Source: an uncultured Chloroflexia bacterium
GTDB taxonomy: Bacteria > Chloroflexota > Chloroflexia > QHBQ01 > JADMIH01
Reading direction: 5' to 3'
Assembly (NCBI GenBank): GCA_963797095.1
Contig: CAWCNY010000003.1
Location: 32,001-96,000, forward strand
Length of the DNA stretch: 64,000 bases
Positions within the stretch are counted from its first letter, which is position 1, and each line of letters opens with the position of its first letter. The notes beneath the pieces are model-generated. The model was given only the letters and a program-made list of their open reading frames with translations, searched no databases and was not told the DNA's origin. The position numbers and the translations under genes are program-made. Below, one piece after another: positions 7,862 to 31,456 of the stretch.

Positions 7862-7927
7862 AGTCTCCTCCTAAGGTTTCGATAGGAAAGAATCTGGGGC
7901 GTCCTTCTGGGACGTCCTATCGCATGG

Positions 7928-11345: not shown

Positions 11346-13040
11346 GTGGAGATGATTACCGTGGAACAACACGAAGCCATCCGCCGCGCCTTCTACCTCG
11401 AACACAAGAGTGTCAGGCAGATCGCACGAGAACAAAGGCACTCCCGCAAGACTGTTGACAAAGCCATTGCCCAAGCCCAAGCCCAGGCTCAGGACCCATC
11501 CCAGTCCCAATTCTACCAACCGTACCCTTACCCAACTTACCGGCGCACCAAACCTAGACCCGCTCCGGTGTTCGGCTCTTTCCAGACCCGTGTCGACGAA
11601 CTCCTACAGCAAAACGACCGTCTCCCACGCAAACAACGCTACACCGCTCGCAAGATCTTTGAACTTTTGGTCAAGGAAGGCTACCAGGGTAGCGAGTCTC
11701 GCGTGCGATTGCACGTGAGCAGATATCGCAAAGCCCATCACGCACCACCCCTGTTCATACCACTAGAGTTCGAGCCTGGGAAGGACGCCCAGGTTGACTG
11801 GGGTGAAGCTGTTGCCGTCATCGGTGGCGAGCGCCAAACCGTGCAGTTGTTCATCATGCGTCTGAACTACTCAAGGCGATCCTTCGTGATGGCCTACCCC
11901 TCGCAGAAACAAGAAGCCTTCTTTGCCGGTCATGTGGCAGCTTTCCAGCACTTTGGTGGAGTTCCCCAACGTATCAGCTACGACAACCTGGCCTCGGCGG
12001 TGGATCCGGTTGCCTCTTTCAGCTCGGTGCGCCTCCTGATCGAAGGACGAGTACGACGAGAGCAGAGAGCATTCGTAGCCTTTCGTAGTCATTACCTGTT
12101 CGAGAGCCACTTCTGCACGCCTGGACAAGGGCATGAGAAGGGAGGTGTTGAACACAGCGTAGGGTTTAGCCGCCGCAACTTCCTGGTACCTATCCCAGAT
12201 GTGGCCTCATTTGAAGCATTGAACATCTTTCTTCTGAGCGAGTGCCTGCGAGATGATCAGCGCCGGGTTGCGCGCCAACCCACCACCATCAAAGAAGCCT
12301 GGGAGCAGGAGCTACCTCATCTGCGTCCTCTACCTTCCTACCAATATGAATGTTGCGTGACGAGCACGGCACATCTCACTCCATACAGCCAGGTGATCTT
12401 TGAGACCAATCGCTACTCGGTGCCCGTCGAGAGAGCAAGGCGAGAAGTGATCGTCAAGGCTTACCCTTTCCATGTGGACATATTCGACCCCAATCCCAAC
12501 CCCAATCCCAACGATGGCCAGCCACGTAATCAATCGCATGACCAGCCCGGCCGCTCCGGCCTACCAGGATTGCTTGCCCGTCATCCCCGCTGCTACGAGC
12601 GAGAGCAGGATATCTTCGAGCCACTGCATTACCTGCCTTTGCTCGCTCAGCGGCCAGGGGCATTCGATTATGCCAAACCATTGCGCCGGTGGCGAGCCAA
12701 ATGGCCACCTACATATGAGAAGGCGTTGGAACTGTTACGGGAGAAGTGGCCGGAAGGCAGAGGAGTGAAGGAGTTTGTCCGCATCTTGCAACTTCATCAG
12801 GATTATCCCGCTGTGCTTGTGGAGCGAGCAGTTGGGCAGGCTCTTTCGTATGGGTGTGTTCATTTTGATGGAGTTACCCATTGTTTGAGGCAACTCACCA
12901 CGCCTGAAACAGAGCTGACCATGCTTGCAGGTCTTGATCTGGTAGGGCTGGCCGATCACCCACACCTGCAAGCCATTGGCAAAATCGGCAGCCAGCCCAT
13001 CGACTTACGTCGTTATGAGCAACTGCTTCAAGGAGGATGA
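11346..13040 (+). CDS. istA: IS21 transposase IstA
   Basis: N-terminal HTH and DDE motifs AQVDW, YDNL, EKGGVE. Confidence 0.95.
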   Translation: MEMITVEQHEAIRRAFYLEHKSVRQIAREQRHSRKTVDKAIAQAQAQAQDPSQSQFYQPYPYPTYRRTKPRPAPVFGSFQTRVDELLQQNDRLPRKQRYTARKIFELLVKEGYQGSESRVRLHVSRYRKAHHAPPLFIPLEFEPGKDAQVDWGEAVAVIGGERQTVQLFIMRLNYSRRSFVMAYPSQKQEAFFAGHVAAFQHFGGVPQRISYDNLASAVDPVASFSSVRLLIEGRVRREQRAFVAFRSHYLFESHFCTPGQGHEKGGVEHSVGFSRRNFLVPIPDVASFEALNIFLLSECLRDDQRRVARQPTTIKEAWEQELPHLRPLPSYQYECCVTSTAHLTPYSQVIFETNRYSVPVERARREVIVKAYPFHVDIFDPNPNPNPNDGQPRNQSHDQPGRSGLPGLLARHPRCYEREQDIFEPLHYLPLLAQRPGAFDYAKPLRRWRAKWPPTYEKALELLREKWPEGRGVKEFVRILQLHQDYPAVLVERAVGQALSYGCVHFDGVTHCLRQLTTPETELTMLAGLDLVGLADHPHLQAIGKIGSQPIDLRRYEQLLQGG

Positions 13041-13041
13041 A

Positions 13042-14151
13042 TTGGAGAAAGAGAGGGAGAGAACGGAGAGGACGCAGACCGTGAACACGGCGAATACGAA
13101 CACGGTAAAGCCAGCAAGGGCAGCAAGGGCGACAGAACATCACATGTTGCTGGAAAGCTATCTACGCCAGTTACGATTGCCCAGCTTCGTGCAACACTAC
13201 CAGAAGTTGGCTCAAGATGCCGCACAGACCAACCTCAGCTATGAACGTTTTCTGTTAGCTCTGGCTGAAGGAGAGGTAGGCCAACGAGAAGTGCATCGAG
13301 TGGAACGCTCTATCGCCTCCGCCAAATTCCCGGTGCTCAAAGAGCTTGCTGACTTCGATTTCAGTGTCGTGCAGGGTTTAGCCAAGACGAGGGTACTTGA
13401 ACTGGCTCAGGGTGGGTACATTCAGAGGGCAGAGCCGATCCTTTTGGTTGGCAATCCAGGGCTTGGCAAGACCCATATTGCCACAAGTCTTGCCCTTGCG
13501 GCTTGCCGTCAGGGCCATCATGTGCGCTTCTACAACGTAGCAGGCTTAATCAATGATATGATCCAGGCACAACAGGAGCTGCGATTGTCCCGTTTCATGA
13601 CACAGATGTGCAAGCAGCAGGTGATTGTGCTGGACGAGCTAGGCTTCATACCATTTACAGCGGCGGGTGCGCAGTTGCTCTTCCAGTTCTGTTCGACCCT
13701 TTACGAGAGAGTGGCAATCATCATAACTACGAACCTGCGATTTGGAGATTGGAACAGTGTGTTAGGAGATGAGCGAATGACGGCTGCACTTTTGGACCGG
13801 CTCACGCACAAAGCACACATTCTGGAGTTTGTTGGAGAGTCGTTTCGTTTTCGCCAGCGTCTTCAACAGCAACAGGTGCAGGGGCAGGGGCAGGGGCGAA
13901 GTGAAAGAACAGGTGATGGTGCGAACGGGAATTTCGGGTACGGTTCTATTCAGAGTCTGGAGAGCCGAGAGATGGAAGGAGGGGAGGAAGACGAGGGGGC
14001 AGAAGCGGGGAGATCGGGGAGAGCGGGGAGAGCGGGGAGAGCGGGGAGACAGAGGAAGCAGAACCGGCGCAAATGGCAAGCATCGCTGATCGGCCTTAGT
14101 TTTTTCGCAAAATTGACCTCAAAATGGCCGAAATTAAGTCATGACCTCTAA
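13042..14151 (+). CDS. istB: IS21 helper ATPase IstB with a low-complexity C-terminal extension
   Basis: GNPGLGKT, VLDELG, ALLDRLTH, GESFR. Start is uncertain; TTG at 13042 follows AGGAGG. Confidence 0.92.
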   Translation: MEKERERTERTQTVNTANTNTVKPARAARATEHHMLLESYLRQLRLPSFVQHYQKLAQDAAQTNLSYERFLLALAEGEVGQREVHRVERSIASAKFPVLKELADFDFSVVQGLAKTRVLELAQGGYIQRAEPILLVGNPGLGKTHIATSLALAACRQGHHVRFYNVAGLINDMIQAQQELRLSRFMTQMCKQQVIVLDELGFIPFTAAGAQLLFQFCSTLYERVAIIITTNLRFGDWNSVLGDERMTAALLDRLTHKAHILEFVGESFRFRQRLQQQQVQGQGQGRSERTGDGANGNFGYGSIQSLESREMEGGEEDEGAEAGRSGRAGRAGRAGRQRKQNRRKWQASLIGLSFFAKLTSKWPKLSHDL

Positions 14152-14566: not shown

Positions 14567-15103
14567 TCACTGTGATATCTCTAGCTTCAATATCACCGGA
14601 TCCGAGGGATCGCCGTCTATGTGGGCATACCAAATCTTGACTTGTAGCCCCTCTTTCATTGGCCCCCCAAGTGTACTTACATGGTGAAAGCCAAGGCTCT
14701 CGCTGTATTCGGAGTAACTAAACTGGACCCCTTGCACCCTAAAGCTCTCGGCCTTGCCACTGGCCGTACTGGTTAGGTCTATTACTTGCCCCTCAGCAAC
14801 CTGTGCCTGATTAGTGGCGAGCAAATCGCTGCCAGTATGATATGCGGAAAGCGTCGACGCAAAGAGGAAGATCGCAACGCACAAACCAGCACAGATCAGG
14901 GTTACAGATCCAGATATCCTTATGGCACTAGGTACCTTGGGTATGCGGCTGCGATTGACCAATATTCCAACACCGACGAACGCAACCGCCAGAGGGATTA
15001 TTACAACCCACCATGCAAACGATTGTTGCGAAGCGTCAAAGACCGTTCGATAAGCCACGACCGTGCTGCGGTCCATGTTGTTCCAAATGTCGACTAGAGT
15101 CAT
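14567..15103 (-). CDS. Hypothetical membrane protein (IS passenger)
   Basis: Two hydrophobic helices followed by a beta-rich domain. Lies inside the right IS end repeats. Confidence 0.7.
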   Translation of the reverse strand: MTLVDIWNNMDRSTVVAYRTVFDASQQSFAWWVVIIPLAVAFVGVGILVNRSRIPKVPSAIRISGSVTLICAGLCVAIFLFASTLSAYHTGSDLLATNQAQVAEGQVIDLTSTASGKAESFRVQGVQFSYSEYSESLGFHHVSTLGGPMKEGLQVKIWYAHIDGDPSDPVILKLEISQ

Positions 15104-15256
15104 GTCCGTGATGTCCCCACTAGACTTGCGATTTCCGTGTGGCCCCCTTTTCGATTATCAAATGGCTCCCTTTTTAATTATCAATATTTTCGTCGGGGAG
15201 GAGAAGTGGCTCCCTTTTTGGTTATCAAATGGCTCCCTTTTCTATTGACAAAAACA

Positions 15257-16335
15257 GCGTAGGAAGTACGAGTGGAACACAGAATACCCAAGTAGCTGCT
15301 ATGAACGTGCCCCAACAGGTAGGGCCAACAACGTCCGCGTTAGTGGGACCCAAGTTTGAGGCCACAAAACAGGCAATCCTTGACAACGACCAGAGGCGCA
15401 TGGATGCAGCAAAGACTCAGGTGGCCCAAAATACCCTGAACGATGTACCTACCCGAGTGCGTACTCCTCTGCCAACACCCAAGCCAAGGGATACCCCTGG
15501 CCCCGGGTTAGGAGAGTGTGCGGGAGGCGATAAGGTCTTCTCACTCAGCGGATGTTGGGGCGGTAGGCTCAATGATGAGTTCATCTATATCAATTCAGGA
15601 GCCCAATATAGCGACCGTTCGCAAGGCGCTATTCAAGTCTATACAACAACATTGTCTGGGAGGATAAAGTTGCCCATCATTACGTATAACTCTCCGCAGA
15701 AGGAGGGACCCCTCAAGATCGCTTATGTTTACATGCCTCGTGTGGCACTGATTGCTCCTCATGCGGATCGACCTACGACAATGTTTGTATTCAATCTACA
15801 GACAAGAGAATGGGAAACGGCAACAGAAAACCCTTGTCGGATATATCCTTTGGCATTTAGTGCTGAGACGTTCGATAAATTCCCTGTTGGGGAAATGAAG
15901 AAACAGGTGCCGCTCAATACTGCTGTTGGGGGCGGGAAGACAAATTCAGGAACAGCTGCCGCCAGTTTTGCCTGGCTAAGCTTTACACCCGATACCTCTG
16001 GCAGGAATAACAATCCAGGCCTGCCCGCTCCCGGCGGAAGTGGCACCTTCATGAATCCTGATAACCCGAATGATCACATTCTATCAACAGGCGACTGGAT
16101 ACAAGGGCGGCAGACCATAGGCGCTGATTCGTCTACAAGAAGCGCCTTCGATTTCTTGGAGGCGGGTGGATTCATCATACCGATGCCACTCTGGGATAGG
16201 GTTAGAGGCCAAGGCACGAACTTACAATACCATGTATCCGGGTTTGCATGGGTCTACATGGCGGATCATTCCGCCTTCCCACCGACCGACCTCTCGGTAA
16301 TGTACTGGGGGCAAGCTACATGCTTCGGCAAGTAA
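15257..16335 (+). pseudogene. 5'-truncated secreted protein; central domain homologous to 49044-49880, C-terminal Tad-like domain
   Basis: The ORF start lies inside the IS21 end and there is no signal peptide. Shared motifs CxGG..CW..G..D..QG.I.VY..TY.(S/T)P..G...FVF.L.T..W. Confidence 0.7.
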
Positions 16336-16553
16336 GAGCTAGACGTAGCAGCGAGCCACTTCTCCGTAATATCCTAAACTTGATCTTGCAAAGAGCAGTT
16401 TCCAATCCCGCCGTGCCTGTCAGATAACTTCTCATTCCTTGACATTGATTGACTGGTCAAATCCTGGCTACATCTATGTCCTATTTTCGCTCGTATCATG
16501 TTCATGGGCCTAATGCACTCGTATACAAAGCCAATAGACCAGTCTTCCCGTAG

Positions 16554-19500
16554 CTACGTCACGTTCCCATAGCTCACGAAATCGAGTGTCACAAGCGACT
16601 CACCTAAGCGGTGGCTATAACCGGTACCCACGACGTCAAGCTGTCTGCCATCCGCTAGCTGTAGACTGAGGGGTCTCTCACCTGGATCAGGAAAGTAGCT
16701 GTTAATCACAGCAGTACCATGCCAGGTGTGGCGCCGGAGATCAAACTCATCTACTTCGAGTGAAAGCACGTAACTTGCACCATATTGACTACCGTCAGCA
16801 AGAGTAAGGAATCCGGCTCCTTGCTCTATCTTACCCTCAAGGGAAGCCCATGGTTCCGGCCATTTCTCGGTGGCTTTTTTCCAGTTGTCCTTCAGATCGT
16901 CAATGGTTTGTCGCAGCCATTGACGAACATGTATCGGCCGCTCGGGCCTTAGTGCTTGTTGGAGTTGGTCGATTGTGCTGTCATCTCCCAAGTGAGCCAG
17001 AGCGCGGGCGTAACGCCAATTAGCAAGAACCGCCTCGTTGGTGCCTACACGAAGCAATCGATTGAGGTAGTTGGCTGCCCACGTCCGCTTACGACGCTCT
17101 TTTTTCGCAAGTGCAGCAGCGTCCCGCACCCTTGCGTCTCTATCGGTTGTGAGCTGCCTTTCGAGCGTGGGGACTAGAACTCATTGCGCGCAAGCCATCC
17201 ATATGCTTCAGCTGCCCGCTGGCGCCGCTGAACATCAGCCGAGCGGATGTATACATGGCACACCTCCGCCAGATCCTCAGATGAGAGTCGCAACAGAGCC
17301 CGATAAGCTGATCGGCGCACTGCATACTGGCTGTCACCAGCCAGCATCAGTAAGTGCCTAGTTGCTTTCTCTTTGACCAGTCTAGAGCTGTAAACGGCTT
17401 CCCCTAAGGCATCAGCAAGAGCAGCCCTGGAGTCGGGTATCCAATTGCTAACTTCGGTACTCCAGTCTTCTGACGCTAAGTCATCGGGCAGGATTCGGGC
17501 TAGCAGATCGAATATGCTCGTGTCAGCCATGCCGGCTCCCTGACGTATGCGAGTCTGTGCTAAGATGGCGGCCCGCAGTCTATCCGATACAGGAGGTTTA
17601 TCTGCCCCCGAGTGAGCGAATGCTATCGCCGACAAAAGTTCCCGAGCCTTGAACCATTCCCGCGGGCCGTAACTTTCTAACAGATATACGATCACATCTT
17701 GAAGACCATAGGGATCTAGGGTGTAAAGGAGACCAACTAGTCGGGACCACTCTTCAAATCGAGGGGGATTTGAGACGAGCCGATAGCCCTCTTCTGTTCG
17801 CTCCAGCCCAAGCGCATTTCGAAGGAGTTCGTCCCTACCCTCAAGGAGATGCTTGTGGGCCAGTAATCCAAGAGATCTTCTGCCGAGATCTGTCTGTGGC
17901 TCGGCTGCCCAACCTTGTATCCGATTCACAACTCGCTCGCTAGGCTTGTAGCCAGAAACGTAGCCAAGAATAGCGACAACAGTGCTAAGCTCATATTCGG
18001 GGACGCTCTCGTGGAAAAGCAAGGCTTCCAACTCAAGAAAACCATCGCCCGTAAGCAGGTCATCGAGACTCAGTCGCTCAAGGGCACCAATGGCCGCAGT
18101 ACGATGCCTCGGCGCAGGTGGGTCACAGGCGACCTCAACAAGTCTTTGCTCAATTGTTCTATCACCTGTCCGGATCAGAGATGCGGCCACATCAGCCAAC
18201 GCATCCGCCGAGTCTCGCAGTACCTGCCCATCAACTTCCAGACCGAAGTTCAGAAGGGTCTCGAACGAGTCCCGGCTCTCGGCGCTGGCCATAACCTGCA
18301 TGGCTGAGATTCGCAGGGTGAGTTGGGCATCGCGCTGGATCCCTTCCAATTGCTTGTCAGTATCTAGATGCTCCCGCACCCACCGCGTAAGGGTATCAGG
18401 TATAGGATCCAAGCGGAAACAAGCGAGGCGGTCGAGTATCTTTGCCTGATCAAAGGGGCTCGTTTCGTTCTCCACACCCGATCTGAACCACTCGAGACTG
18501 AGCGCCTCTTGAGATCCAGCCGTGAGGGCAATCTCCCAGGCAGCTTCCTTTTGGAATGCTTCCTCGGTATGTGCAAGGACAAGAATCTTAGTGTCTAAGA
18601 AAGCATCTTCTCGGACAAGTGTGAGAGCAGCGGGCGGTAAGCCTTGACCCCAGCCCTTTAGCTGAAGAGGACGGATAGAGTCAATTAGTCGAGAGTAGAG
18701 CAAGTAGCGAAGCCTCATATTCGTGCTAGTGTCCGAGCCAGTAAGCCATTGAAGGACATCAGGGACTACTCGCTGAGAATTGCACAGAGGTATCACATCA
18801 CTGCCCAAATAGAGGTCCAATTCGTACTCTTCCGACTGCCCGCGCCACAATTCCGCCAGTCGCGACCAGATTGTGTCTTGAAGTGTCTTCTGTCGATCGT
18901 GCTTGTCCGCTACAGAGGTTAGTATCCGTAGTGCATACGATCGGTCAAAACGTTCTATTCCCTTAACCACCGCATCAGACGAGAGCCAACTTTGATAGAC
19001 CACATCCAAGCTCGCTGGACTTCCAAGTAAGCGCAGGGCTTGGTTCAGCGGGAGACTCCAGTGATCTCTGGTCCTTGTGTGTAGAGAGCGTAACAGCCAG
19101 GGATGAGCCCTGGTGGAGGTGCCAAGGTCAGCCAACGCCAGCAGGGCCAGGTCCCCTAGCTCATCCGGATTTTTGCGGGCAATAGAGCGAAGAACAGCTG
19201 GTAGGTCCTCGCGACGATAGCCGATTTGGATGATTGTCCAGATGGCATTTCGTGGATCTGAAGAGGCAACCCGTTGGATCAACTCATCGAGAACGTGGTT
19301 GCGAAGGCTGGTTCGCTCAGGCTCCTGGTACTGTTCTATCCACTTGACCAGGTCCTCCCGAAGGTAATGTAGGAAGTGCCGTTGGCCCACGGGAAGATCA
19401 CGCTGCTCCAGCTCCGGAAGCATGGCGTCCAAAATGAACGACTGTGCAGCCGCAGGGTCGTCCACTGTTGCATCCCTGAGCATGCGGAAGCTGTCAATCA

Positions 19501-19651
19501 GAAGGTAGAACGCATCACGAGCTATTCTCTCATCCTGGTCCCTCATCAATGCCCTTACAGAAGGCAGCAAATCCTTGATCTGCTCAGGGCTGCTACTGCT
19601 GCTGTTCAGCACGGACCTGAGTTCTGCGTATATTCTAGGGCTATCTTTCAT
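16554..19651 (-). pseudogene. HEAT/ARM-repeat protein of about 1030 aa, split by a 1-nt frameshift near 17180
   Basis: Helical repeats (DSQYAVRRSA, ADVQRRQRAAEA). After WLARNE an alternative frame continues VLVPTLERQLTTDRDARVRDAA into ORF 16554-17129. Could be a sequencing error. Confidence 0.7.
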
Positions 19652-19656
19652 AATTA

Positions 19657-21591
19657 CTATTCTCTATCGGGCTGATATAGTGACGCAAGATAATCTTCGA
19701 CAAAGATATGCCGCCAACGCCAGTTCTGCCCTTCGACCGAAATAAGGCCAGCGGACTGCGCCTCATTATAGAGACGATTCGCTTGTGCAGGGCCTATTTG
19801 GGCTGCGGCGTGCTCCCGCCAGAGAGCGGAAGGGTATCTGGTTGGGTTCTGTCCGTGCGTGGCATGGGCGATCTGGGGGAGCACGTGTCTTAGGTCGTTC
19901 GAGTTGAAAGGATTGGCATGTGTGCTCGACGTGGCTTTGTCATTAAACCAATCCACAAAGAAGCTACACATGTCATTCAGAGCGTCTGGATCGCCATCCA
20001 GGATACGATGCTGGACGTGAGTCTCACGAACAAGCGTAAACGCATGCCACATGGCTGGATGACAGAGAGCATTAAGGATATCAGGATGCACACTAGGCAC
20101 ATGAGGCTTATTCTCAAACCTCACAGTGGCCGTGACGCTACTGGAGGCGTCGCCCCCAGCAGTAGCAGACGATACAGTCTGCTTGATGCGAGCGGCGACA
20201 GCCGCGTCACAGGAGTCGGCAGCCAATGCTAGGTCCAGAGGCGAAAAATCACCTACGTCAATTATCTCCAGGCGCCTGTGGGAATCAGAGGGATGTTCCG
20301 CGCGCCCTGGCCAGGAGGCAATGACTGTCTCTTCACTACCAGGGCGACAGGTCGCAAGCAAAGCAACAGGTGTGGTCAATGAGTCATTTGGAGAGGCCGA
20401 GGCTTCGGCCCACGACCAGTGAAGAAGGCTTCGGAGTTCGCTTATCTGCTGAGGGTGCAGCGTATCGGAAGCGACATCATCAAGGCCGAGAGACATCATC
20501 GGATTCGGCATGGTGGGATTCGCCCTACGAAGTCGCAAGCACGCCTCGTTATTGCCCTCGTACCGCCGAGGATGAGAGGCACTAAGATGTGCTGCATCGG
20601 AAATAACTCTCGCGGGAAGATAAGGCCCAAATTCATCGGTGGGAATGACAGCGACTAGAGGACCTAAACCAGAGTGGGGGTAAGAATTGGCAATCTCTCG
20701 TCCCCACTGCCATAGCACTACCGTCTTACCACTCCCACCATGACCGCGAAGTATAATCACGCATGTGCCTCTAGCCCGGATCGCTCGGGTAATATCATCT
20801 AGGACTGAGCGCCTCACGGGCGAGGGAGGCACACGAAGCACTGACTTAATGGCATCGAGTTGCCTGCATGAAGACGTAGCTTGCGCCTCTGGCGTCAACT
20901 GCTGAGCGCCTCTATCGTTCGCAAACGCCAGATGCAGATCCTCGATCCGAACTAATGGGTCGCTAGCAGTGGCAGCCCGATCCACGAGACTACCAAGGAG
21001 GGTATGTATACCTGCAGCTATCTCTGGGTCGGAGCATCCAAGCCGCACAGCATACTCTTTCAAGGCGTCCTTCCAAGATCCAATTGACGGGCTTCCTACT
21101 TCGCTTCGTGGTAACTTACTGGCGACGCGCTTCTGGTCCGACGTAAGATTTGAGGCTTCAATATTGGCTAGTATATTTCGCGTCTGAAGGCTGTATGAGC
21201 GGTTTGTGACAATTAGATAGCGGGTTTGGTCACTATCGAAGCATCCGATGCGTCTGGCTCTGTCACGCATCTTGTTGAGGATCCGCTTGAACTCAGCAGG
21301 CTCAAGCGGCGAATCGGAAGGGGATCTTGAGAACTTATACTGGATGAGTACCCATTCGGAAGGAGCATTTTCCTGGGGAAGTTCGACTACTGCATCCTCA
21401 TCAAAGTACTCACTATAGAGCCTGTTGCTGAGGTCCTGAACGAGCGGGATAAGTTCAGCCAGGCGTCCGAGAAGGGTCGCGTCGGGCCGAGCGTCCTGGG
21501 CAAGGGCCTGAGTGCCTAATACTCCAAGGAACTGATACACATAGCCGGCGAGAGCTGTGCGGCCACCATCTCTTGTTGAAGCGTCGGTCAT
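19657..21591 (-). CDS. Cap4-like PD-(D/E)xK nuclease domain fused to a STAND/NACHT-like NTPase
   Basis: N-terminal GGRTALAGYVYQ...EYFDED...LIQYK, Walker A GHGGSGKT, Walker B-like LGLDD, and a C-terminal wHTH-like WRWRH. Confidence 0.7.
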   Translation of the reverse strand: MTDASTRDGGRTALAGYVYQFLGVLGTQALAQDARPDATLLGRLAELIPLVQDLSNRLYSEYFDEDAVVELPQENAPSEWVLIQYKFSRSPSDSPLEPAEFKRILNKMRDRARRIGCFDSDQTRYLIVTNRSYSLQTRNILANIEASNLTSDQKRVASKLPRSEVGSPSIGSWKDALKEYAVRLGCSDPEIAAGIHTLLGSLVDRAATASDPLVRIEDLHLAFANDRGAQQLTPEAQATSSCRQLDAIKSVLRVPPSPVRRSVLDDITRAIRARGTCVIILRGHGGSGKTVVLWQWGREIANSYPHSGLGPLVAVIPTDEFGPYLPARVISDAAHLSASHPRRYEGNNEACLRLRRANPTMPNPMMSLGLDDVASDTLHPQQISELRSLLHWSWAEASASPNDSLTTPVALLATCRPGSEETVIASWPGRAEHPSDSHRRLEIIDVGDFSPLDLALAADSCDAAVAARIKQTVSSATAGGDASSSVTATVRFENKPHVPSVHPDILNALCHPAMWHAFTLVRETHVQHRILDGDPDALNDMCSFFVDWFNDKATSSTHANPFNSNDLRHVLPQIAHATHGQNPTRYPSALWREHAAAQIGPAQANRLYNEAQSAGLISVEGQNWRWRHIFVEDYLASLYQPDRE

Positions 21592-23119
21592 AAGGTGGAT
21601 TAGGTCTCCTTATCCAGGGGCGAGGTTACTTAATCGAATCACACCGGCGCCTGTTGCACAGTGCAACGCGCTAAAGCTTCTTTGTTATCAAGCGTCATCG
21701 GATGAGTCTATATAGGCGACCACTTGGTATTCACCAAGTCCCCTGTAAACGCCTTGGGTAGCAACGCTAAGATTAGACATTCTGGTTGCTGTTCTACGTT
21801 CCAATGCTATTCCTCAAAATGTGCTGTTGCTGAAACCTCGGTCTCGCGATCACGGCAGGACGAAAGTCGCGCTTGGGAACTCTTGCGGCTCCAGCCGCCC
21901 TGAGGCCCCTTACCGACTTTGATGTTGCGGCGAATGAAGTAGCCTTCGTACCTCGTACCATTCCGCGATCAGTTGTTCCAGATGATTCGCCGCCATCCCG
22001 TCTCCCTCTGGCCGCCTGCAACCGTGTGCACCCCAACGGCCTAGAGCGGCTCCAACTTGGCCGCCTTTGCCATCAGCCGCCTCTTCCCCGCCGTCTTGAA
22101 CAGCACTGTCACAATCTGGTCCTGACCACTCGGCGCGACCTCCAGCACTTGGCCCTCGCCGAAAGTGGTATGCTTCACGCGATCCCCAACTCTGAAGTTG
22201 GCGGACATGGTCGGCTCGACAAAGCTCTGTTGCTGCGGCCTCGACGGGGTGGCGCCGAAGACCGGCCCGGAATTGGCGGTGGGCACTGGCGTCATCTGGC
22301 CGTCAGCGAGACGTGACGCCGACGCAAGGTGTTCACCGGCTGGCATAGCCGCTACCGGTCGTACGGTGGTTGTCGGCGGTGAAGCTGCCGCGCTGTGGGC
22401 AACTACTGCCGCTGGCTTTGCAGGCTCTGGCGTGGGTGCCTTGGCAGTGACTTGCGCCGGTGGGGACAACTTTGCCCCCATGGCAGGTTGAGGGTCCACC
22501 AGAGTCTGGTAGGCTTGGCCAGTGTCGATGGCCTGCTGCATGGCGTCATATATCTCCAGGATGACGCGCTTGGTGCGATACTCGCCATGCGCTGCTTCGT
22601 CCTTGCGCTTGACGATGGGGAAGGTCTCCATGATGTAGGCCACGTCATCGCGAGCGATACCGTAGAGGTGGAAGTAGGCGGCATCAAGCTCGCAGCGCAG
22701 CAGGAAGCGGCGCTCCTCGTCCCAATGGAAAGGCGGGCCGTCGTAGCCGCAATCTTTGGCGAACGGCTCTAGGTCGTAGGCGGTGTAGGTTAGCTCCAGC
22801 ACGCGGGGCAGTATCCAGTCGCGCAGCGTTTGGACGGGTTGCCAGAGGGCTGGCTGGAGGTAGTTTTCGGGCAGGAGGACCGGGAGTTGATTCAGGTAGC
22901 CGTAGGTGAGGTGCGTACCTCCTACTTTTTGCCGAGTTGCATAATCAAATGCAAATGCGGTCAGATTAGCCTGTAGATTTGCTGCTGAGAACTGAGTCGT
23001 TTGAGGGAGCAGCATGAGTGGGCAGGTGTGACCCACCGCTACCCTGGACGGGTGCATTTCAGATAGGGGGCAAGGTTTGAGATAATAGGAGGATCTTGCG
23101 CGTAGCATGGAGGCTCCTG

Positions 23120-24602
23120 ATGAAACGTACCCGAGAACAGATGAAGGCAGAGCTTATGGCACAGGCAGAGCAAGCAATTGAACAACTGATTGGCTGGTCA
23201 GCCGACACCCCCCAACCCACACTAGCTCAGATCGAGGAGGCGGTAGTGAAGCTGCGCAGGCAACTGAGTGAGCAGATGGCACAGGCGGTGCTGGCACAGC
23301 AAGAGGTCTCCACTCAGAATGTACCTGGCCCACCTTGTCCTGAGTGTGGGAGGGAGATGCGCTACAAGGGAGAGAAGGCTCACCCTGTGGAAAGCAGGAT
23401 AGGCACCATCAAAGTACAACGCTCCTACTACTATTGCTCCTACTGCCGTAAGGGGCTTTTCCCCCCTGGATGAGCAGTTGCACTTGTGGGACGTGCATTG
23501 GAGCGAATGGATAATCAAGCAGTCAGTATGGCTGGGAGGATTGGTGGACTTCGAGAGAGGGGCACAAATACTTGAGCAGATAGGAGGTGTGTCCATCTCC
23601 GACAGCACTGTTTGGAGGCTGTGCCAGGAGTGGGGTAGTAGCTTTGGAGAGGTGGAGGCTGCACGGTGGGTGGCAGCCAACTCCGCCAACGATGTACATA
23701 TACAGGTACAGGTCGAGAGGGAAGGTTCTAAGGCAGAAGGTTCCAACGCATTTGCGCCTGGGGTGCCTGGGGTGCCTGGGGTGCCTGGGGTGCCTGGGGT
23801 GCCTGGGCAATTCACAAAGATGGGTGCGAGTATGGATGGCGCTATGATCCATATTCGTGAGGAAGGTTGGAAAGAGTTGAAGGTGGGCTGCGTGTTCGAC
23901 ATTGAAGCTATGGAGATGGAGGCTGATAAAACGGAGCCTGCATTGGCCACTGAGTTTGAGGAGGAAGGAAGCGAAGATAGTCGTGCCCGTGCTACTAACC
24001 AAAGCTATGTAGCCCATCTAGGCGGACCCACCGTTTTCGGACAGATGCTATGGGGAGAGGCACACCACAGAGGGTGGGAGAGGGCTGATCACACGCTGGT
24101 AGTAGCAGACGGTGCCGCCTGGATTTGGAACCTAGCTGAGGAGCATTTGTATGACAGTGCTCAACTGGTGGACTGGTATCATGGAGCGCAGCACCTGGCC
24201 TCAGCATCTTTAGCAGCACACGAAGGCGATGCGGGCGCCTCCAAACAATGGCTAGAGGCACAGAAAAAGCTGCTATTTGAGGGTGGAGCAGGCTACTTGG
24301 CAGAGGTGCTAGCTGACTTGGCAGAGCGGCAACCAAAACAAGCTGAACAGCTAAAGGAGGAAGCGGGTTACTTCAGCAACAACGCACATCGTATGAACTA
24401 CTCCCAGATGCGCGAAGCGGGCTATCCGATTGGGTCAGGCACGGTGGAGAGCGCAGGCAAGCAGTTCAAGGCTCGCTTCGCCGGAGCAGGTATGCGTTGG
24501 AGCCGCCTGGGTGCCGAAAAGCTGTTGCCCGTGCGGACGGCAATCCTCAGTTCACGCTTCGATCAGTGCTGGCACCTGGTCTACAACTCGCCCCCTATCT
24601 GA
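23120..24602 (+). CDS. ISKra4-family transposase in two frames (+1 shift at TTTTCCCCCC near 23460)
   Basis: ORF1 has a CxxC...RxYYYCxxC Zn ribbon. The joined sequence reads FPLDE. Motifs MDG, ADGAAWIW, DWYH, IGSGTVES. Confidence 0.85.
23756..23807 (+). repeat. 9-bp tandem repeat GCCTGGGGT x5.8 (PGV repeats) in the transposase
   Basis: Directly visible and in frame. Confidence 0.95.
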
Positions 24603-27600
24603 AATGCACCCACCCTGGACAGCACGCTGGCTACAACTGTGCGCTCGTTGGTGGTATTGGTAATGTCGCGCCACCCGAGCAACCAACCTCTGTCCCACCT
24701 ACCCACCAGGCGAGCGTCTACCTCAGACTTAGGCACCCAGTACCGAGGCAGAACTACACAGTTGGGGTCGGCCAGTTCGGCGGAAGTCATATCACGAGTA
24801 TCCATCCCACTGTAGGTGGCCCAGCGATGGGTGAAGTGGTGAATCATCTTGGCTTCGTAGAGTGGCAAGTACTCCTGACCGGCCCTGCGAAAGATGTTAC
24901 CCTCTAACCCCCAGCCATCGGGTTCCAACTGCTCCCTCGTACGGAAAAGGCCACTTGCCGTATTCATCATGAACATAAGCAATCCTTGGAAGCCCCAAGG
25001 ATTGCCTTTTTCGCCTTTCGCCTCATTCACAAATACTGGCACTCGCCGATAGATTGCCTTCGTCAACTCAGCGTCCCGCTTGGAACGAAAGATCGCGCAT
25101 GTTCGCGTGTTGGGGTTAAGCAGGGCTATATCCTCAGCTGAGAGAGTGAACCGCCGTTGCTCTTCAGACAGATGCTGGACGTTCAGCGCAAAGAAGACGA
25201 ACTCAGCGCCGTTCACGGGTGCTCGACCCGAACCCGACATAGTGAGAAGACAGAATTTGTAACTGCGGTGAACACCAGGGAAGATTCCCTCACGGTTCTC
25301 AAAGTCGTAAAGACTGATGAGCGAGCGTGTGTCTATCAAGTTTTGAAAGAAGTACTGGTTGAAGGAGTCAGTTGCGATGCCACTAGGAGCGATAATACCA
25401 ATCTGCCCCTTAGGTGCAATTACCAAACGGTTCAACTCACAGAACAGGGGTGCCGTGTTCAATCGACCATAACTTGTCAGTGGATAACGCCCGCTATCGT
25501 GGATGAAATGCTGTATCCCCTCCATTTGACGAAGTTCTTCCGTATAATTGTGGTGCAGATGAGGATCTGATTCCTCAAGCTTGGCTATAGCCTTCTCACG
25601 TGCTGCCATGTGTTGAGCATTTGCGATAGCCGGCGCGCTGGAGGCAAAGAACTCCTGAGGATCAAGTTGTATCTGCTCCCATGGTGGGTTGCCCAGCATC
25701 ACGTCAAAGCCACCGACCCACCCTGCCTGCTCGTTGCTTGGTCCTTCTTCCCTGGCGACCGGGCGGAAGACGGTCGGAAACTGCAGGTGCCAGTGGAAGA
25801 AGCCATATTGCTGGTCTAAGCGCTCGATCTCCTCTTTGCGCCAGCCAGGTATCGCGTATGTGCCCTTCGCCCGTATGCGCCGGAACTCATCCTGGGTGAC
25901 TGGGTAGGAATCCTTTGTTTTCTTCCACACGAAGGCCGCGCACCAGGCGTTCGCCAGCAGGGCCATGTGCTCGTAGGCCGCCGAGTTGACCAGGTCTTCG
26001 TACAGCTTCTGCTTGCGGTGGATGTCGTCCGTGGTGTCGTCGGAATAGCTCTCGATATCGAGCATGGCCGCGCCCAAGTCGCCGAGCTGCTCGAAAGGCT
26101 CCTCCATATCGAAGCCCAGCAGCCTCTGCTGGCCGGTGCGCTCTTGCTTGTTCTTCTTCTTGTATTCCGAGCAAACCGCCTTGTCGTCGCCCTCTATCGG
26201 CTCGAAAGCTTCGTCGGGTATGCCCTCCTTCAGCAGGCGCGGAGTAGCGCCCAGCAGCGAGTTGCCGTGCTGGATGTGGTGGTCCAAAAAGGAGAGGGGC
26301 TTGCCAGGCTCCAGCGCCTCCATCCAGAGCGACACTTTGCATAGCTCCACTGCCATTGGGTTGAGGTCCACCCCAAAGATACAGCGCCCGATCACATCGC
26401 GAAGGGCCTTGCGGGTTGCCTCCGGCGAAGGCTCCTCGTCGCCCGTGCGTACAGCCCCCAGCCGCTTGGCGATGCGGTGGGCGGCGGCTATCAGGAAGTG
26501 ACCGCTGCCGCAGGCGGGGTCACACACTTTCAGGTCAAGGATGGCCTGCTCTGGGTTGGGTTTGCGGGCGGCCTCGTCCAGCACTGGGTCCAGCGCCGAG
26601 TCGAGCAGCGAAGTGATCAGGCTGGTGGGCGTGTAGTACGAGCCTGTCGTCTTGCGCTCGCTGCCGCTCACCGTCTTCAGTGAGAAGGTGCCGGCGTCAG
26701 CGTTCAGGTCGGGCTGCTGTTCCAGCAAGCTCTCATAGACGCTGCCCAGCTCCTCCGAGCCGATATTGCGGTAGTCCACGGGGCGCAGGGTGTTGGCGTC
26801 CACCGTGTAGGCAAGCTCGCGCACCGCCCCCAGCAGGTCGCCGTTGACTAGCTCACACCCCTCAAGGTCGGGCATCGCGCCGCTGCCGCCGTTGAGAAAG
26901 AGGAAGCTGTCGAGGGCAGGCAGGGCGAGGGCCGGGCAGCCGCTGTCGCTGCCTAACTGCTCCATCACCAGTCGCAAACCCTGGAAGAGGTCTGCATGGC
27001 GGGTACCTCGCCGGCGCGCCGCCAGGTTGCGCAGCCGGATGGTGGAGTAATAATCCATGTACCGCTTGCGGGCTTCGACCGAGGCCTTCGGGTCGAGCAG
27101 AAGCCCCCGGTCCTCCGCCGCGAACAGGAAGATCAGCCGGTAGACGAGACGCAACAACTGACGGTAATAGTCCTGGGCGCTCAAGTCGCCTGCTCGCAGC
27201 TTCTCGCGCAAGGGGCGGTTGGCCTGGTGCGAAAGAAAGCCACTTCCCAACGCATTTATGGCCGCCTCTACCCCGCTACGCAGTTGATCGAGAGCGCGCG
27301 TGCCCTTTTCCTGGGCCTCCTTCGACCACTTCTCGAGCCAACAGTCGGAAGTATATTCGCCCTCCACCCGCAACTCGTGGCACAACAGCCACAGCAGCAC
27401 GAAGTCCGAGTAGACCTCCCCATCCATCATCGATTGGAGGTCGAATTCCACGTATGCCTGGCGGGTGAGGCTCTTGTTGTCGCGCAGTATGCGCAACTGC
27501 CTGCCGTTCGACACAAATGCCCACAGGTGCTCTTCAGAGGCGTTCAGAAGCTCTTGCACCATGCTGTGAGGGCTAGAGCGCGCCGCGCCAGCTACACCCG

Positions 27601-28063
27601 CCGTACGCCTATCCAGGTCGATTCCCGCGCTCACAAGGTGAATAGGAACGTGACCCCAGGTATGCGACACAGGGTAACTCTTGCCGCCTACCTCTACTGC
27701 CCGGGCGGTTGGGAGGCGCCCGTAGCCAAGTTCCTGAAAGAGAGGGAGCAACCACTTCTCGCGTGTCTCGGATGTGCCTGGGTCGTCACTATGACGCTCG
27801 GCTATCGCCTTGAAGCTGGCCCATGCACCAAGCAGGTGGTTCCACGAGCGGTTGGTAGCCTCGTTTAGCTTCTCACCCCTTGGCAGGTGATAATCTTCGG
27901 GCCGGAGCCCGTCCAGGGATGGGTCACCGTCGCCGATCCGCTGCAACAGGTCGGCCGGCAGGATTGAGCCTTCAGTGTGGATAGTGGTGAAGATGTCCCT
28001 CTGTTTGGTCTGCATTACGTCAGGTCTCCGCTTCCAACGTTTAGTCGCAATTTGACAATTAAG

Positions 28064-28577
28064 TCAATTCAGATCAGATGTCAGATAGCTGAGGAGCGTG
28101 CTCCAGCTTCGCACCTTTTCAGGATAAGGTTTTACATACCGGCCCGGCGTGCCACTAGTCGACGACAGTTGAAATCACGTCAATATCTGCAGGCAGCTTG
28201 TATGTGATCAAGCTAGCGAACAAATCTGCTGCGGTAGATCCGTTCAGCGCTATGCACTTGATGCGCTGATGCTGCAAAAGGAACTCCTTGAGGTCATTAG
28301 GTTTGGCATTCCGTATGGCAAAATCCGAACTTTCAACTCGCTCACATTCACTGAGAACATCCCACAACGCGATACCCTTCTGCTGCAAGTAGCTGATACG
28401 CTGCTTATAACTGGCCTCCGGGTCGCTGTCAAAGACGCCGTAGACGATCCGCCAGAATTGGTTACGAGGATTGGCATAGTATTGCCGAAGCCGCAAGGAC
28501 TCGTCACCAGGCATCGTTCCCAACACCAGAACCTGAGATTGGTCGTCCACAACCGGATCCAGTGACCTGATCAACAC
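28064..28577 (-). pseudogene. DNA-deoxyinosine (hypoxanthine) glycosylase, UDG superfamily, frameshifted near 28173
   Basis: LGTMPG..SL...QYYANPRNQFW, IALNG. The conserved tail LSSTSGTPGRYVKPYPEKVRSW is in the +1 frame and ends at 28064. Confidence 0.8.
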
Positions 28578-28612
28578 TAATCTCGCTCCTCTACCTTCTT
28601 TCTTCTTTCGCG

Positions 28613-31456
28613 CTATGCCTTCGGCAAGTAAACGTAGATCCCCAGTACGTCGGGAGGGAGTTGCGGCTCAACCCTGTAGCTTATCCCCTTCATGCGAGAC
28701 GCCGTACGCACTCGGCGATGGGCTTCCAGCAGTTCCTCCCCCCGCTCGATGGCTACTTGATCCAGACGGGGGCGCAACTCGTCAAAGCTAGCCATGACCT
28801 CACCTAGGAAATGGCTGGCGACGCCCGCGGGGACGTTGGCGTCGGGCTGCAGGTGTAATAATTCCTCTGCCCTCTTACCGTCTAGCCAGTTAGCACTCTG
28901 CGGAACATCCTCGAACGCCACTAGCTGGCAGTCCTCGGCAAGCAACGGCGTCTCTTCCGCGCCTCGCTGTGAAATGATGTGATACCGGAACCTGAGCAAT
29001 AAGAGCGTTGTGATCGTCGATACTTTGTGGGTCCGCATTACTCCACATCGTCGAGCCAGGCTCTCTCCAAGAGGATCGAGGGCTGTATCCATCACATAGG
29101 ATGCGAGGCCTTCTACTATAGGGTGCGTACGGCTCAGATATAGCTCTTGCTCCCCGACTGGAAGCTCGAAGCGAGCGGCGAACTTGGTGCCTTTCCCCCT
29201 CTCGATCCAGCGCGTGACGTCCATGGCGTCGCGCAGAGCAACCGGCACCTCGGTCAGATCAAAGTGGACCGACCCGTTCTGGCTGATGACAGCGCCTTGC
29301 GCGGCCAACGTCTCCTTGGTGAAGTTGGCGACATCTACACCCGAACCTATGGCAGCACGCACGTCTCGCAACTCGGCGGCTACCTCGTCCACCTTAATAC
29401 CTTCCTGGGCATACATAGTGTGCGAGCGCTTCTCACGCTCCTCGGCGGCATCCCATTGGGCCAGGATCTCTTTCTCCTGAGGTCGCAACAGGTCCTCGAA
29501 GCCTGGCATGTACATCTGGGTACTGCCCGTTTTTTCTCTCAGGAGTAGGCCTTCAAAGACTGCTTCCAGCACCTGGTCAGTATCAACTGGCACGGGCACA
29601 GAGATACCGAGCGAGCTTCGGATCATCTTGTGCTTGCGGATCAGGATTTCTAGGACAATGCCGTCTATCTGGTTATCGAGCCCATAGTAGGTAACCACAC
29701 GCACTGTGGGGCTCTTCTGGCCGTAGCGGTCCACTCGCCCTTCGCGTTGCTCGTGGCGGGTGGGATTCCACGCCAGGTCAAAATGCACAACAGCATCAAA
29801 GTGCTGCTGCAGGTTGATGCCCTCTGACAGACAGTCGGTACACACGAGAACGTGTTTGGGTGCCTCGGCGAGCTGCGCCACGCGCGCTTCTCGCTCGGCA
29901 GGCGGCAGTGTGCCGGTAACGGGGGCCACTTGCACATCCTTCGGCAGCCGCGCACGTAGTTCGGCGGCGACGTACTCTGCGGTCGGGATAAACCGGCAGA
30001 AGATAATCGGACGGTATCCTTCTTTCAGGAGCGATTGCACTATACCAACCGCTTTCTGCAGCTTGGCATCTTTCTCACCAATCAGAGCGTCGGCCTCACG
30101 AGCCATCTCAAGCAGCCGGCGACGGTTCTGTCCACCTACGCTCTCTTCTTCCCCCATGTCGCTGCCGGGCGTGAGGTCCATACCCTCAGCGGACTCTGCG
30201 TCCATCAGGTCGAGCACCGTACGACGCCCTATCTCGTCGGCCTCTTCAACTGTGTCGGTGTCTGCCGTGGAAGCTCGGCTGCGCAAGGTGGCGGCTGCAG
30301 CGGCTGGGCTGGACGCCAGCGAACGCAGGAGGGCTAGCGCTGACCACCAGCGTACCCGCTGCCGGTGTCTGCCCAGAGTGGTGTCCGCCACCGTTTCGCG
30401 GGCATAGCGTAGCACCTTTTCGAAGAGCCGCTTGTACTCTTCGGAGAGCTTGTAGCTAAGCTCCGTCTCCTCCCGCGCTGGGAAAGGAGTGATAGTATCC
30501 AGGTAGGCTTTGATGTCTCGTCGACGGCGCTGCACGAAGTGAGCGGCCAACTGACGGCGGTGGTGCTCGTTTTGAGGGCCGGAAAGGTCTTCGGGCAGAC
30601 CGGCGAAGTCGGGGTCCAGTAGGGTCAGGAGGGAACGGAAAGCCTCCTCGTTGCCACTGTGAGGGGTGGCTGTCACCAGGATCATATGCCGGTCCTTGTT
30701 GTGCGAAAGGCCTGATACAAGCTGATGGCGCTGGTGACGCCCGCCACCGCGCGCCTCTCCGCCAAAGGCGCAAGTATGGGCCTCATCAACGATCACAAGC
30801 TCTGGGCAAGTGCGTAGGAACTCCTCGCGGCGTCGGTCTGACTTGATGAAGTCGGTAGAGACGATCACGTAGGGGTACAGATCAAACAGCGACTGCCCAA
30901 GGCGGGTATTGCGCTCCAGCCTCGTGACGGTGCTTGGCAAAACGAGTTCAGCATCTATATGGAACTTATCGCGCAACTCCGCCTGCCACTGCTCGGCAAG
31001 CTGGGGCGGGCACAGTACCGCGAGCCGATCCACTTCCCCACGGTCGATAAGCTCTCTGGCTACAAGCCCGGCCTCCACGGTCTTGCCAATGCCGACATCG
31101 TCAGCAATGAGCAACCGAATTGGGTCCAGCTTCAGGGCCATGAGGAGCGGCACAAGCTGGTAGGGACGCGGCTCAACGCCTATTCGTGCGAACGATCGGA
31201 ACGGCCCAGCTGAGGACCGAAAGCCCAGCCGTACCGCATCGCGCAGCAGCCTGCTCGAGCGGTAGTCGCCCGGTTTCTGAGGGTCGGGGAGATCGAAGCG
31301 AGCAGGTTCCACCTTTTCTAGAGGCAAGTAGATGCCTGTTACCTCGTCATCGGTCCCACCTAGCGGACGAAGTACCAGCAGGTCATCTTCAGATTCTGGA
31401 AGGACTACCCATTCCCGCCCGCGTGCACGCACCAAGGAACCGACTGCGTAGCTCAT
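28613..31456 (-). CDS. SNF2-family helicase (DrmD-like)
   Basis: PRPYQ, LIADDVGIGKT, VDEAH, TATPH, SEGINLQ, QREGRVDR. Confidence 0.92.
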   Translation of the reverse strand: MSYAVGSLVRARGREWVVLPESEDDLLVLRPLGGTDDEVTGIYLPLEKVEPARFDLPDPQKPGDYRSSRLLRDAVRLGFRSSAGPFRSFARIGVEPRPYQLVPLLMALKLDPIRLLIADDVGIGKTVEAGLVARELIDRGEVDRLAVLCPPQLAEQWQAELRDKFHIDAELVLPSTVTRLERNTRLGQSLFDLYPYVIVSTDFIKSDRRREEFLRTCPELVIVDEAHTCAFGGEARGGGRHQRHQLVSGLSHNKDRHMILVTATPHSGNEEAFRSLLTLLDPDFAGLPEDLSGPQNEHHRRQLAAHFVQRRRRDIKAYLDTITPFPAREETELSYKLSEEYKRLFEKVLRYARETVADTTLGRHRQRVRWWSALALLRSLASSPAAAAATLRSRASTADTDTVEEADEIGRRTVLDLMDAESAEGMDLTPGSDMGEEESVGGQNRRRLLEMAREADALIGEKDAKLQKAVGIVQSLLKEGYRPIIFCRFIPTAEYVAAELRARLPKDVQVAPVTGTLPPAEREARVAQLAEAPKHVLVCTDCLSEGINLQQHFDAVVHFDLAWNPTRHEQREGRVDRYGQKSPTVRVVTYYGLDNQIDGIVLEILIRKHKMIRSSLGISVPVPVDTDQVLEAVFEGLLLREKTGSTQMYMPGFEDLLRPQEKEILAQWDAAEEREKRSHTMYAQEGIKVDEVAAELRDVRAAIGSGVDVANFTKETLAAQGAVISQNGSVHFDLTEVPVALRDAMDVTRWIERGKGTKFAARFELPVGEQELYLSRTHPIVEGLASYVMDTALDPLGESLARRCGVMRTHKVSTITTLLLLRFRYHIISQRGAEETPLLAEDCQLVAFEDVPQSANWLDGKRAEELLHLQPDANVPAGVASHFLGEVMASFDELRPRLDQVAIERGEELLEAHRRVRTASRMKGISYRVEPQLPPDVLGIYVYLPKA

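Follow-up and report, generated by a model that had tools for sequence, protein, structure and literature searches.

How does a bacterial immune receptor of the STAND/NLR type transmit a signal from its ligand to its switch? Such receptors are normally single chains, so the relay from ligand to switch is hard to study. A locus in the genome of an uncultured Chloroflexia bacterium raises the question whether the sensor of such a receptor can also be a protein of its own. It lies at positions 16,554 to 21,591 of a stretch of 64,000 nucleotides (nt) of contig CAWCNY010000003.1 (positions 32,001 to 96,000), called the window from here on; all coordinates refer to it. An initial annotation had described a protein of 644 amino acids (aa) with a Cap4-like N-terminus and a P-loop that stops right after its winged helix-turn-helix. 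Five bases downstream it placed the start of a frameshifted gene of about 1030 aa with HEAT repeats and a small C-terminal beta domain. The two, named gene A and gene B here, were proposed to form an Avs-like two-component anti-phage receptor in a defence island. This proposal was supported computationally. Sequence comparison and structure prediction suggest a two-gene module of the Avs/bNACHT type, unnamed so far, in which the receptor would be split over two polypeptides with the sensor acting in trans. We assign this reading a probability of about 0.6.

If the solenoid does act on A as a separate sensor, the pair would stand for a new class of NLR-like immunity in bacteria, one with two components, and would add an unnamed family to the bacterial defence catalogue. 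The signal transfer from sensor to NTPase would be separable genetically and biochemically. A natural trans sensor would make the relay testable by mixing, titrating and swapping parts, and the reuse of the sensor with another effector would add to this. For this genome, the pair rounds off the picture of a defence island carried by a conjugative-type element, and one system of that island is flagged as probably broken.

Organization of the locus

The features of the two genes are as follows; the basis of each assignment is given in brackets.

19657-21591, minus strand: gene A, 644 aa, ATG start (open reading frame (ORF) list and translation)
20917-21591, minus strand: Cap4/DUF4297-type PD-(D/E)xK nuclease domain of A, residues 1-225, with E61, D66, Q84 and K86 kept (VIA-align, conservation)
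20722-20745, minus strand: Walker A motif GHGGSGKT of A, residues 283-290 (translation, conservation)
20467-20493, minus strand: Walker B region of A, LGLDGLDE in the family and LGLDDVASD in the window (alignment)
19660-20907, minus strand: STAND module of A, residues 229-644, consisting of nucleotide-binding domain (NBD), helical domain 1 (HD1) and winged-helix domain (WHD); the protein ends after the winged helix (VIA-align, sub-threshold Pfam)
17174-19651, minus strand: first piece of gene B, 825 aa, ATG start, HEAT/ARM alpha-solenoid (ORF list, Pfam, homologues)
17174-17182, minus strand: break in gene B, a one-base frame change followed by TAG at 17174-17176 (sequence)
16554-17180, minus strand: second piece of gene B, last HEAT repeats and C-terminal beta domain, frame open for 208 aa (homologue and profile match)
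about 16557-16838, minus strand: C-terminal beta domain of gene B (position taken from the model of the homologue L007_B)

The stop codon of A and the ATG of B are separated by 5 nt, as annotated, and B is read in a different frame from A. Downstream of the first piece of B, a third ORF at 16554-17129 (minus strand) encodes 191 aa when counted from a GTG; its frame is open back to 17180. Intact B homologues have 1015-1099 aa, in line with the annotated length of about 1030 aa and a frameshift. Aligned with P0004, an intact homologue of 1019 aa, the two window pieces cover its residues 17-807 and 832-1007, with 34% identity over 97% of the length for the first piece and 37% identity for the second. 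They likewise cover consecutive positions of the B profile (1-811 and 820-1006 of 1021). Going by these alignments, the 825-aa and the 191-aa ORFs both belong to a single gene, B. A promoter and terminator scan of 16200-22200 revealed nothing above chance.

Gene A encodes a predicted nuclease and STAND NTPase

The conservation of A was evaluated in an alignment of 73 family members, to which the counts out of 73 given below refer. The motifs quoted in the initial annotation are present, namely GGRTALAGYVYQ at residues 9-20, EYFDEDAV at 61-68, IQYKFS at 83-88 and the P-loop GHGGSGKT at 283-290, and they coincide with invariant or nearly invariant columns. Among these columns G16, Y19, Q20, E61, D66, Q84 and K86 constitute a PD-(D/E)xK-type set. 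The Walker A residues G283, G285, G286, G288 and K289 are invariant, and D371 and R416 are likewise invariant or nearly so. The extreme C-terminus of the protein is strikingly conserved (W624, W626, H628, L635).

With the same alignment as input, AlphaFold2 yielded a model of A with a predicted local distance difference test (pLDDT) score of 91.1 and a predicted template modelling (pTM) score of 0.90. The top match of this model in a Foldseek search of the PDB was Avs3 (8dgc_A, E 1.1e-9), followed by NLRP3, CED-4, NOD2 and Apaf-1. Pairwise structural alignment with VIA-align placed nearly the whole protein (residues 5-641) on residues 2-600 of Avs3 (Z 12.9, 456 residues aligned), and Z scores of 11.7-12.9 were obtained over the Avs3, Avs4 and Avs5 chains. 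The N-terminal domain aligned to Cap4-type nucleases, with HerA-DUF4297 (9c1m_G) over residues 11-225 at Z 14.3 (root-mean-square deviation (rmsd) 3.1, 177 aligned) and with LmuA (9nxx_B) over residues 8-225 at Z 13.4 (rmsd 3.7, 185 aligned, 17% identity). For the C-terminal part, residues 229-644, the NACHT module of NLRC4 (8fvu_B, residues 95-461) gave Z 19.1 (rmsd 5.0, 326 aligned); the wheat resistosome and CED-4 gave Z 14.8 and 13.8, respectively. Residues 95-461 of NLRC4 are what we take to be its NBD, HD1 and WHD. Thus, A appears to combine a Cap4-type nuclease with a NACHT-like STAND module, the winged helix of which is the last domain of the protein, and to carry no sensor. Both the Avs-like character of A and its end right after the winged helix, as initially annotated, are borne out by the model and these alignments.

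Sequence families described the protein less precisely. Pfam gave sub-threshold matches only, to AAA_16 and nSTAND_NTPase5 at residues 257-332 of the window protein. Within the family, AAA_16 was found in 33/73 members, nSTAND_NTPase5 in 30/73, NPHP3_N in 20/73 and NACHT (PF05729) in 21/73 at E ≤ 0.01 with a best value of 2.9e-6; the window protein itself was not matched by NACHT. The hallmark of NACHT proteins is an extended Walker B motif, hhhhDGxDE, and the family motif LGLDGLDE is NACHT-like. The Cap4 likeness is structural, accompanied by weak PADLOC matches (LmuA in 3/73 members, SAVED_PDDEXK in 1/73). A sequence search of the PDB with A returned P-loop-level matches only.

When 1.84 billion representatives were scanned exhaustively with HMMER, 423 relatives of A were detected at E ≤ 1e-3, of which 122 remained at E ≤ 1e-30; these 423 are clusters at 50% identity. 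Among the best 150 of the 423, 133 had 574-723 aa and the other 17 were shorter (131-522 aa, apparent fragments). None of these 150 exceeded 723 aa, and a form with nuclease, STAND module and sensor in one chain was accordingly not seen among them.

Gene B encodes a predicted HEAT/ARM solenoid

The HEAT repeats and the small C-terminal beta domain read from the sequence were both recovered. Pfam HEAT_2 matched the first piece of B with 34.4 bits (cut-off 27.7). L007_B, an intact homologue of 1029 aa that shares 32% identity with the first piece in the window, was modelled from 17 sequences with a pLDDT of 88.7 and a pTM of 0.84. This model showed an uninterrupted all-alpha solenoid from residue 1 to 923 and a small beta domain at 935-1022. 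It resembled CAND1 and karyopherins (E 1e-8 to 1e-6) and matched ARM/HEAT proteins at Z 9-13, and SF3B1 and designed armadillo proteins were found as well, all of them generic HEAT/ARM matches. No solved defence sensor stood out in these whole-model structure searches, by which the beta domain was barely probed.

A and B form a conserved pair

Homologues of A were reached through relatives of the window genome, one species-representative genome collection and a sample of 400 genomes of the phylum; further homologues of B came from a metagenome scan with the B profile. A B homologue followed directly after A on the same strand in 9/9 loci in which A had downstream DNA. In addition to the window these were L004 (G021, an unpublished genome), L006 (Isosphaeraceae), L007 (Anaerolineae), L008 (Actinomycetota), L013 (G289), L014 (G248) and the metagenomic loci L015 and L021. 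The loci L005 and L012 end inside A and were left out of this count. The nine paired loci span at least four phyla. According to longest-ORF calls the gap between A and B ranges from -44 to +54 nt, and in all nine loci the two genes are separate, being in different frames or overlapping. Two genes that co-occur, and no fusion of them among the best 150 A homologues, is what the proposed two-component receptor had led one to expect.

The pairwise identities of A and B are correlated (r = 0.82, Mantel p about 0.002, 8 loci). Drawn from sequence comparison, this correlation shows inheritance as a unit and is not proof of binding.

The constant arrangement also bears on the explanation that the split is an artefact, with one fused gene either broken by sequencing errors or read through by recoding. 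The frame of B is indeed broken in the window and in L006, so errors or pseudogenes do occur in such records. However, nine independent loci, taken from different assemblies, have the boundary between A and B at the same place, and each of them shows a stop together with a frame change or an overlap there. Moreover, the best A homologues are not longer than 723 aa, as described above, and the C-terminus of A is a conserved, well-folded end. On the grounds of the constant boundary and the uniform length of the A homologues this explanation was rejected; we regard it as extremely improbable.

The pair is rare and patchy across genomes. One real A match was present in 60 relatives of the window genome; a second match (57 aa, E 8.7e-4) was not credible. 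A was detected in 2/400 genomes sampled from the phylum of the window and in 0/400 sampled from another phylum, that of G452. Two copies from the same genus, a comparison that rests on the unpublished genome G021, show no more than 27% identity in A and 35% in B, a divergence indicative of horizontal acquisition. Word-based searches, in which the A of the window retrieved itself only and the B profile at least two new proteins, are uninformative on rarity.

The solenoid also occurs fused to a HEPN-like domain

The metagenome scan with the B profile yielded nine loci, five of which had upstream DNA. A was present in 2/5 of these and absent in 3/5 (hmmsearch at E ≤ 1e-5). In two of the three loci lacking A, the B-type solenoid and beta domain are part of a single chain of 1309-1315 aa (L016, 3116-7063; L018, 998-4927) without a STAND gene nearby. 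The solenoid makes up the C-terminal 1000 residues of these proteins, and the N-terminal domain of roughly 300 aa carries the motif RNRVMHH (Rx4H, HEPN type). In the third locus, L017, the same N-terminal domain is a separate ORF of 260 aa that breaks off just before RNRVMHH, a split that probably results from a frameshift. The leads towards HEPN are weak, namely Pfam HEPN_Swt1 with E 0.007 for the L017 piece and atlas neighbours from HEPN families at 0.86-0.90; a search of the PDB with the N-terminal domain retrieved nothing. Genes for HTH-M78 and DUF4411/PIN proteins are neighbours of these loci. Neither a SIR2 domain nor a sequence link to Dsr proteins was seen in the HEPN-like fusions.

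As far as gene architecture tells, the B solenoid is a module serving at least two putative effectors, either in trans together with a STAND switch or fused without one. A solenoid of the B type that occurs without A and fused to a HEPN-like domain behaves as expected of a portable sensor module. We suggest, at slightly less than even odds, that the solenoid may be a portable pattern-recognition module which would activate the STAND NTPase non-covalently by docking on the winged helix of A and would drive a HEPN-like RNase directly when fused. A window-wise comparison of B conservation between the stand-alone and the HEPN-fused class, in which five of the "stand-alone" sequences were of unestablished context and the HEPN type was represented by two near-identical sequences, revealed no class-specific region marking a docking site for A.

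The fusions are also informative about a different role of B. It might be a restraining partner of A, either an antitoxin-like inhibitor or a scaffold. In such a guard-type arrangement, infection would be sensed when B is lost, displaced or degraded, or else A itself would sense it by way of its winged helix or of a host factor. The tight translational coupling, with B downstream of a potentially toxic A, and the even conservation of B along its length would fit such a role, and a host factor has a precedent in EF-Tu for SeAvs7 (PMC13581612). However, fusion of the solenoid to a HEPN-like putative effector in three loci without A, in the way recognition modules are fused in Dsr1, Dsr2 and Avs7, is less expected of a dedicated A inhibitor. 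Furthermore, B is broken in the window and the catalytic residues of A are intact, a state that the cell could not survive with B as an essential antitoxin, unless A has lost its activity as well. Consequently, we consider a restraining function of B unlikely.

Proposed mechanism and comparison with known systems

In the two-gene anti-phage module favoured here, A would be executioner and switch, with its Cap4-type DNA endonuclease on the same chain as a NACHT-like STAND NTPase but no ligand-sensing domain. B, translationally coupled to A, would be the sensor, its HEAT/ARM solenoid and small C-terminal beta domain together amounting to roughly 1030 aa. If the module works as Avs3 and Avs7 do (PMC13581612), B would bind a conserved phage protein. 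Contact of B with the conserved C-terminal winged helix of A would then lift the autoinhibition of the NTPase. After exchange of ADP for ATP, A would oligomerize and the Cap4 domains would be brought together as an active nuclease. Degradation of DNA would finally lead to abortive infection or to destruction of the phage DNA. A complex prediction on part-chains (A 229-644 with B 1-580) gave scores of 0.00 and 0.00, which is evidence neither for nor against binding.

SeAvs3 (8dgc) has the same order as A, an N-terminal Cap4-type nuclease followed by a STAND NTPase, and activation by nuclease oligomerization is likely a shared logic. In contrast, the chain of Avs3 goes on into a TPR sensor of roughly 1400 aa. 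A has nothing beyond its winged helix, and the repeat protein that goes with it has a gene of its own and is of the HEAT/ARM rather than the TPR type. With respect to Avs membership, A thus has the Cap4-type effector and the central STAND NTPase, but it carries no repeat sensor itself and is not recognized by Avs sequence models.

Avs7, Dsr1 and the HEPN proteins described in PMC13581612 resemble the present case in that one type of solenoid sensor is combined with various effectors, with or without a STAND NTPase. Unlike in the pair studied here, where the STAND version has its sensor in trans, their sensor is covalently fused. Lee et al. analyzed fused sensors of at least 400 aa, and split proteins are mentioned only in the Avs7/Dsr1 methods in the accessible portion of that text. 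bNACHT proteins (10.1101/2022.07.19.500537) share the NACHT-like module and the N-terminal effector, and HEAT repeats are among their C-terminal sensor types according to that study; there, however, the HEAT sensor is fused, and Pfam NACHT misses A of the window. Kibby et al. state that bNACHT genes are only rarely found in operons, which are poorly conserved.

HerA-DUF4297 (9c1m) and Lamassu LmuA (9nxx) offer the closest structural match for the nuclease fold, residues 8-225 of A. Their regulators are a separate HerA hexamer or the SMC-like LmuB, whereas the NTPase of A is a STAND module fused to the nuclease. Membership in either system was rejected, as no gene for LmuB or HerA is adjacent and PADLOC LmuA matched with E 0.042 only.

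NAIP-NLRC4 and the sensor/helper NLR pairs of plants likewise distribute sensing and execution over two polypeptides, and NLRC4 is the best match of the NTPase of A. In those cases both partners are complete NLRs with an NTPase; B has none. PADLOC naming includes AVAST types with several genes, so a multi-gene STAND system is not unprecedented.

A literature search, in which bioRxiv supplements were outside the scope, turned up no Cap4-NACHT gene described together with a separate HEAT-repeat gene as its partner. In the supplementary files of PMC13581612 a term search for such a pair gave 0 occurrences, and no model of PADLOC (2023), NCBIfam or Pfam assigns the A-B pair to a named system.

Observations that weigh against the proposed module

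A number of observations weigh against a split anti-phage receptor. No named defence family model of PADLOC, NCBIfam or Pfam recognizes A or B. Pfam Cap4_nuclease/DUF4297 did not match A of the window (E ≤ 1) and is absent from the 16 families to which the 73 members gave matches. A PADLOC check, which the initial annotation had put forward, yielded LmuA as best match of this protein; the match is weak but co-linear (E 0.042, residues 7-207 versus 6-206), and a named system was not assigned. PADLOC Avs1-5 gave no match to it at E ≤ 1, and NCBIfam Avs5 reached E 0.25 with 9.1 bits against a cut-off of 1000. In the family, PADLOC Avs4 matched 14/73 members with a best E of 4e-4 and Avs2 1/73.

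B is as conserved as A (mean pairwise identity 28.6% versus 27.8%), and no hypervariable or class-specific region of B is obvious, which differs from some fast-evolving sensors. Relatives of A or B in viral contigs were not found with the patterns used, and tblastn of A against PLSDB plasmids gave no match at 1e-10. In L006, the sole such locus of eight, no defence or mobile neighbour was found. Finally, the window copy itself is unusual in both genes. Its B is frameshifted, so this copy may not do what the family does. Its A departs from the consensus at 14/78 columns of at least 80% consensus, with a family median of 6 (rank 69/73), and the departures include the equivalents of D374A and E375S, the DE of the extended Walker B, and R556S.

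State of the window copy

The break in B was compared with a relative from a soil metagenome. Contigs of this run, X1, are 92-95% identical to the whole A-B locus and cover all 30 depth bins; runs X2-X4 cover short parts of it only. The X1 contig spanning 17179-17779 runs on past the aligned part by 57 letters, which the aligner left loose. When the printed 30-letter X1 consensus was aligned by hand, 29 letters corresponded to 17150-17178 of the window with 3 substitutions, and one additional base was located beside 17179. With this extra base the first frame continues, uninterrupted by a stop, into that of the 191-aa piece. Since the X1 relative holds one more base at this site, the window carries a one-base deletion relative to its nearest known relative. 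B of L006 is also split into two ORFs, with the break at a different place from that of the window.

Because B is frameshifted and the Walker B region of A is atypical, the copy in the window may have no activity; an assembly error as the source of the frameshift would change this. The copy may be decaying, or it may represent a functional lineage that has diverged, with the break in B introduced during assembly. Decay would make the locus a remnant, non-functional here, with both genes under relaxed selection; this is compatible with the family being a split receptor elsewhere, and we see about an even chance for it. It is favoured by the absence of the one-base break from the metagenomic relative and from the intact homologues, and by the deviant columns of A listed above. 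No second copy of B (by profile) or of A was found in the source genome, and an IS21 element and a truncated-looking UvrD-tudor ORF lie nearby. On the other hand, source reads were not found and an assembly error at 17179 is possible. Both pieces of B are otherwise open and conserved, and A keeps its nuclease residues, Walker A, D371 and the sensor-1 residue R416. In NB-ARC proteins a DD serves as Walker B, and the DD in LGLDDV could act in the same way.

A separate observation concerns the nuclease domain. At 21054-21319 of the window (A residues about 91-179) the X1 relative has a 264-base stretch that is of the same length and too diverged to align. Judging by these letters, it seems to mark a locally fast-evolving segment of this domain.

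Genomic context

The A-B pair is located between an IS21 element and a methylase-helicase block, and genes of conjugation follow beyond the latter. This agrees with the defence-island setting that had been annotated.

11346-14151, plus strand: IS21-family element with istA (rve and Mu-transposase C domains) and istB, 2.4 kb from the end of gene B
22041-23108, minus strand: ORF of 355 aa, with a PcrA/UvrD tudor domain at residues 307-350 as only Pfam match
24581-28015, minus strand: DrmMI-like N6-adenine methylase, 1144 aa (library match)
28613-31456, minus strand: DpdE/DrmD-like SNF2 helicase (PADLOC DpdE full-length, E 1.6e-270; DrmD, 1.8e-89)
31482-36878, minus strand: DruE-like DEAD helicase, 1798 aa, with MZB/DUF1998 domain (best match DruE, E 1.3e-109)
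37688-45199, minus strand: replication-like (DnaD_N/HTH_36), Replic_Relax relaxase and TraG/TraD-type coupling-protein genes (library matches)
45807-48986, plus strand: ORF of 1059 aa without PADLOC or Pfam match
50817-53825, minus strand: ORF of 1002 aa without PADLOC match

The block at 24581-36878 is DISARM/Druantia/Dpd-like and does not fit any single named system cleanly. The 355-aa ORF between this block and gene A might be what is left of a UvrD-like helicase, or it might encode a small protein in its own right. The replication-like, relaxase and coupling-protein genes indicate that the defence genes sit on an integrative-conjugative or plasmid-like element in a contig of 1.15 Mb, of which the 1059-aa and 1002-aa ORFs may be further uncharacterized cargo.

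Restriction, defence or mobile genes were neighbours of the pair in 6/7 other loci. L004, in the unpublished genome G021, has two DNA methylases and an HSDR_N protein, L007 another STAND NTPase, L008 an IS110 element and a SMODS cyclase, L013 two integrases and L014 a ResIII helicase-REase. In L015 the neighbour is a weak HSDR_N-like match only (E 1.9e-6).

This context also has to be considered for a role outside defence, in which A would be a STAND-regulated nuclease of DNA repair or recombination, or the pair would serve the mobile element as a maintenance or addiction module. The relaxase, coupling-protein and replication-like genes around the window locus would suit such a role, and STAND NTPases include non-immune regulators (PMC13581612). 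Nevertheless, the Cap4-type effectors matched by A (Avs3, HerA-DUF4297, LmuA) are defence proteins, the neighbours named above recur in most loci, and the sensor is swapped onto a HEPN-like effector. The patchy distribution and the divergence of the same-genus copies also argue against a role outside defence, which we judge quite improbable.

Two minor observations concern neighbouring genes. Beside the IS21 element of the window there are two ORFs without significant family match, at 14567-15103 (minus strand) and 15229-16335 (plus strand). In L007, a metagenome-assembled genome of the Anaerolineae, the STAND NTPase directly downstream of A-B (5593-8172, plus strand) has NPHP3_N and TANC1-like lid and winged-helix domains, is longer than 860 aa and runs off the contig.

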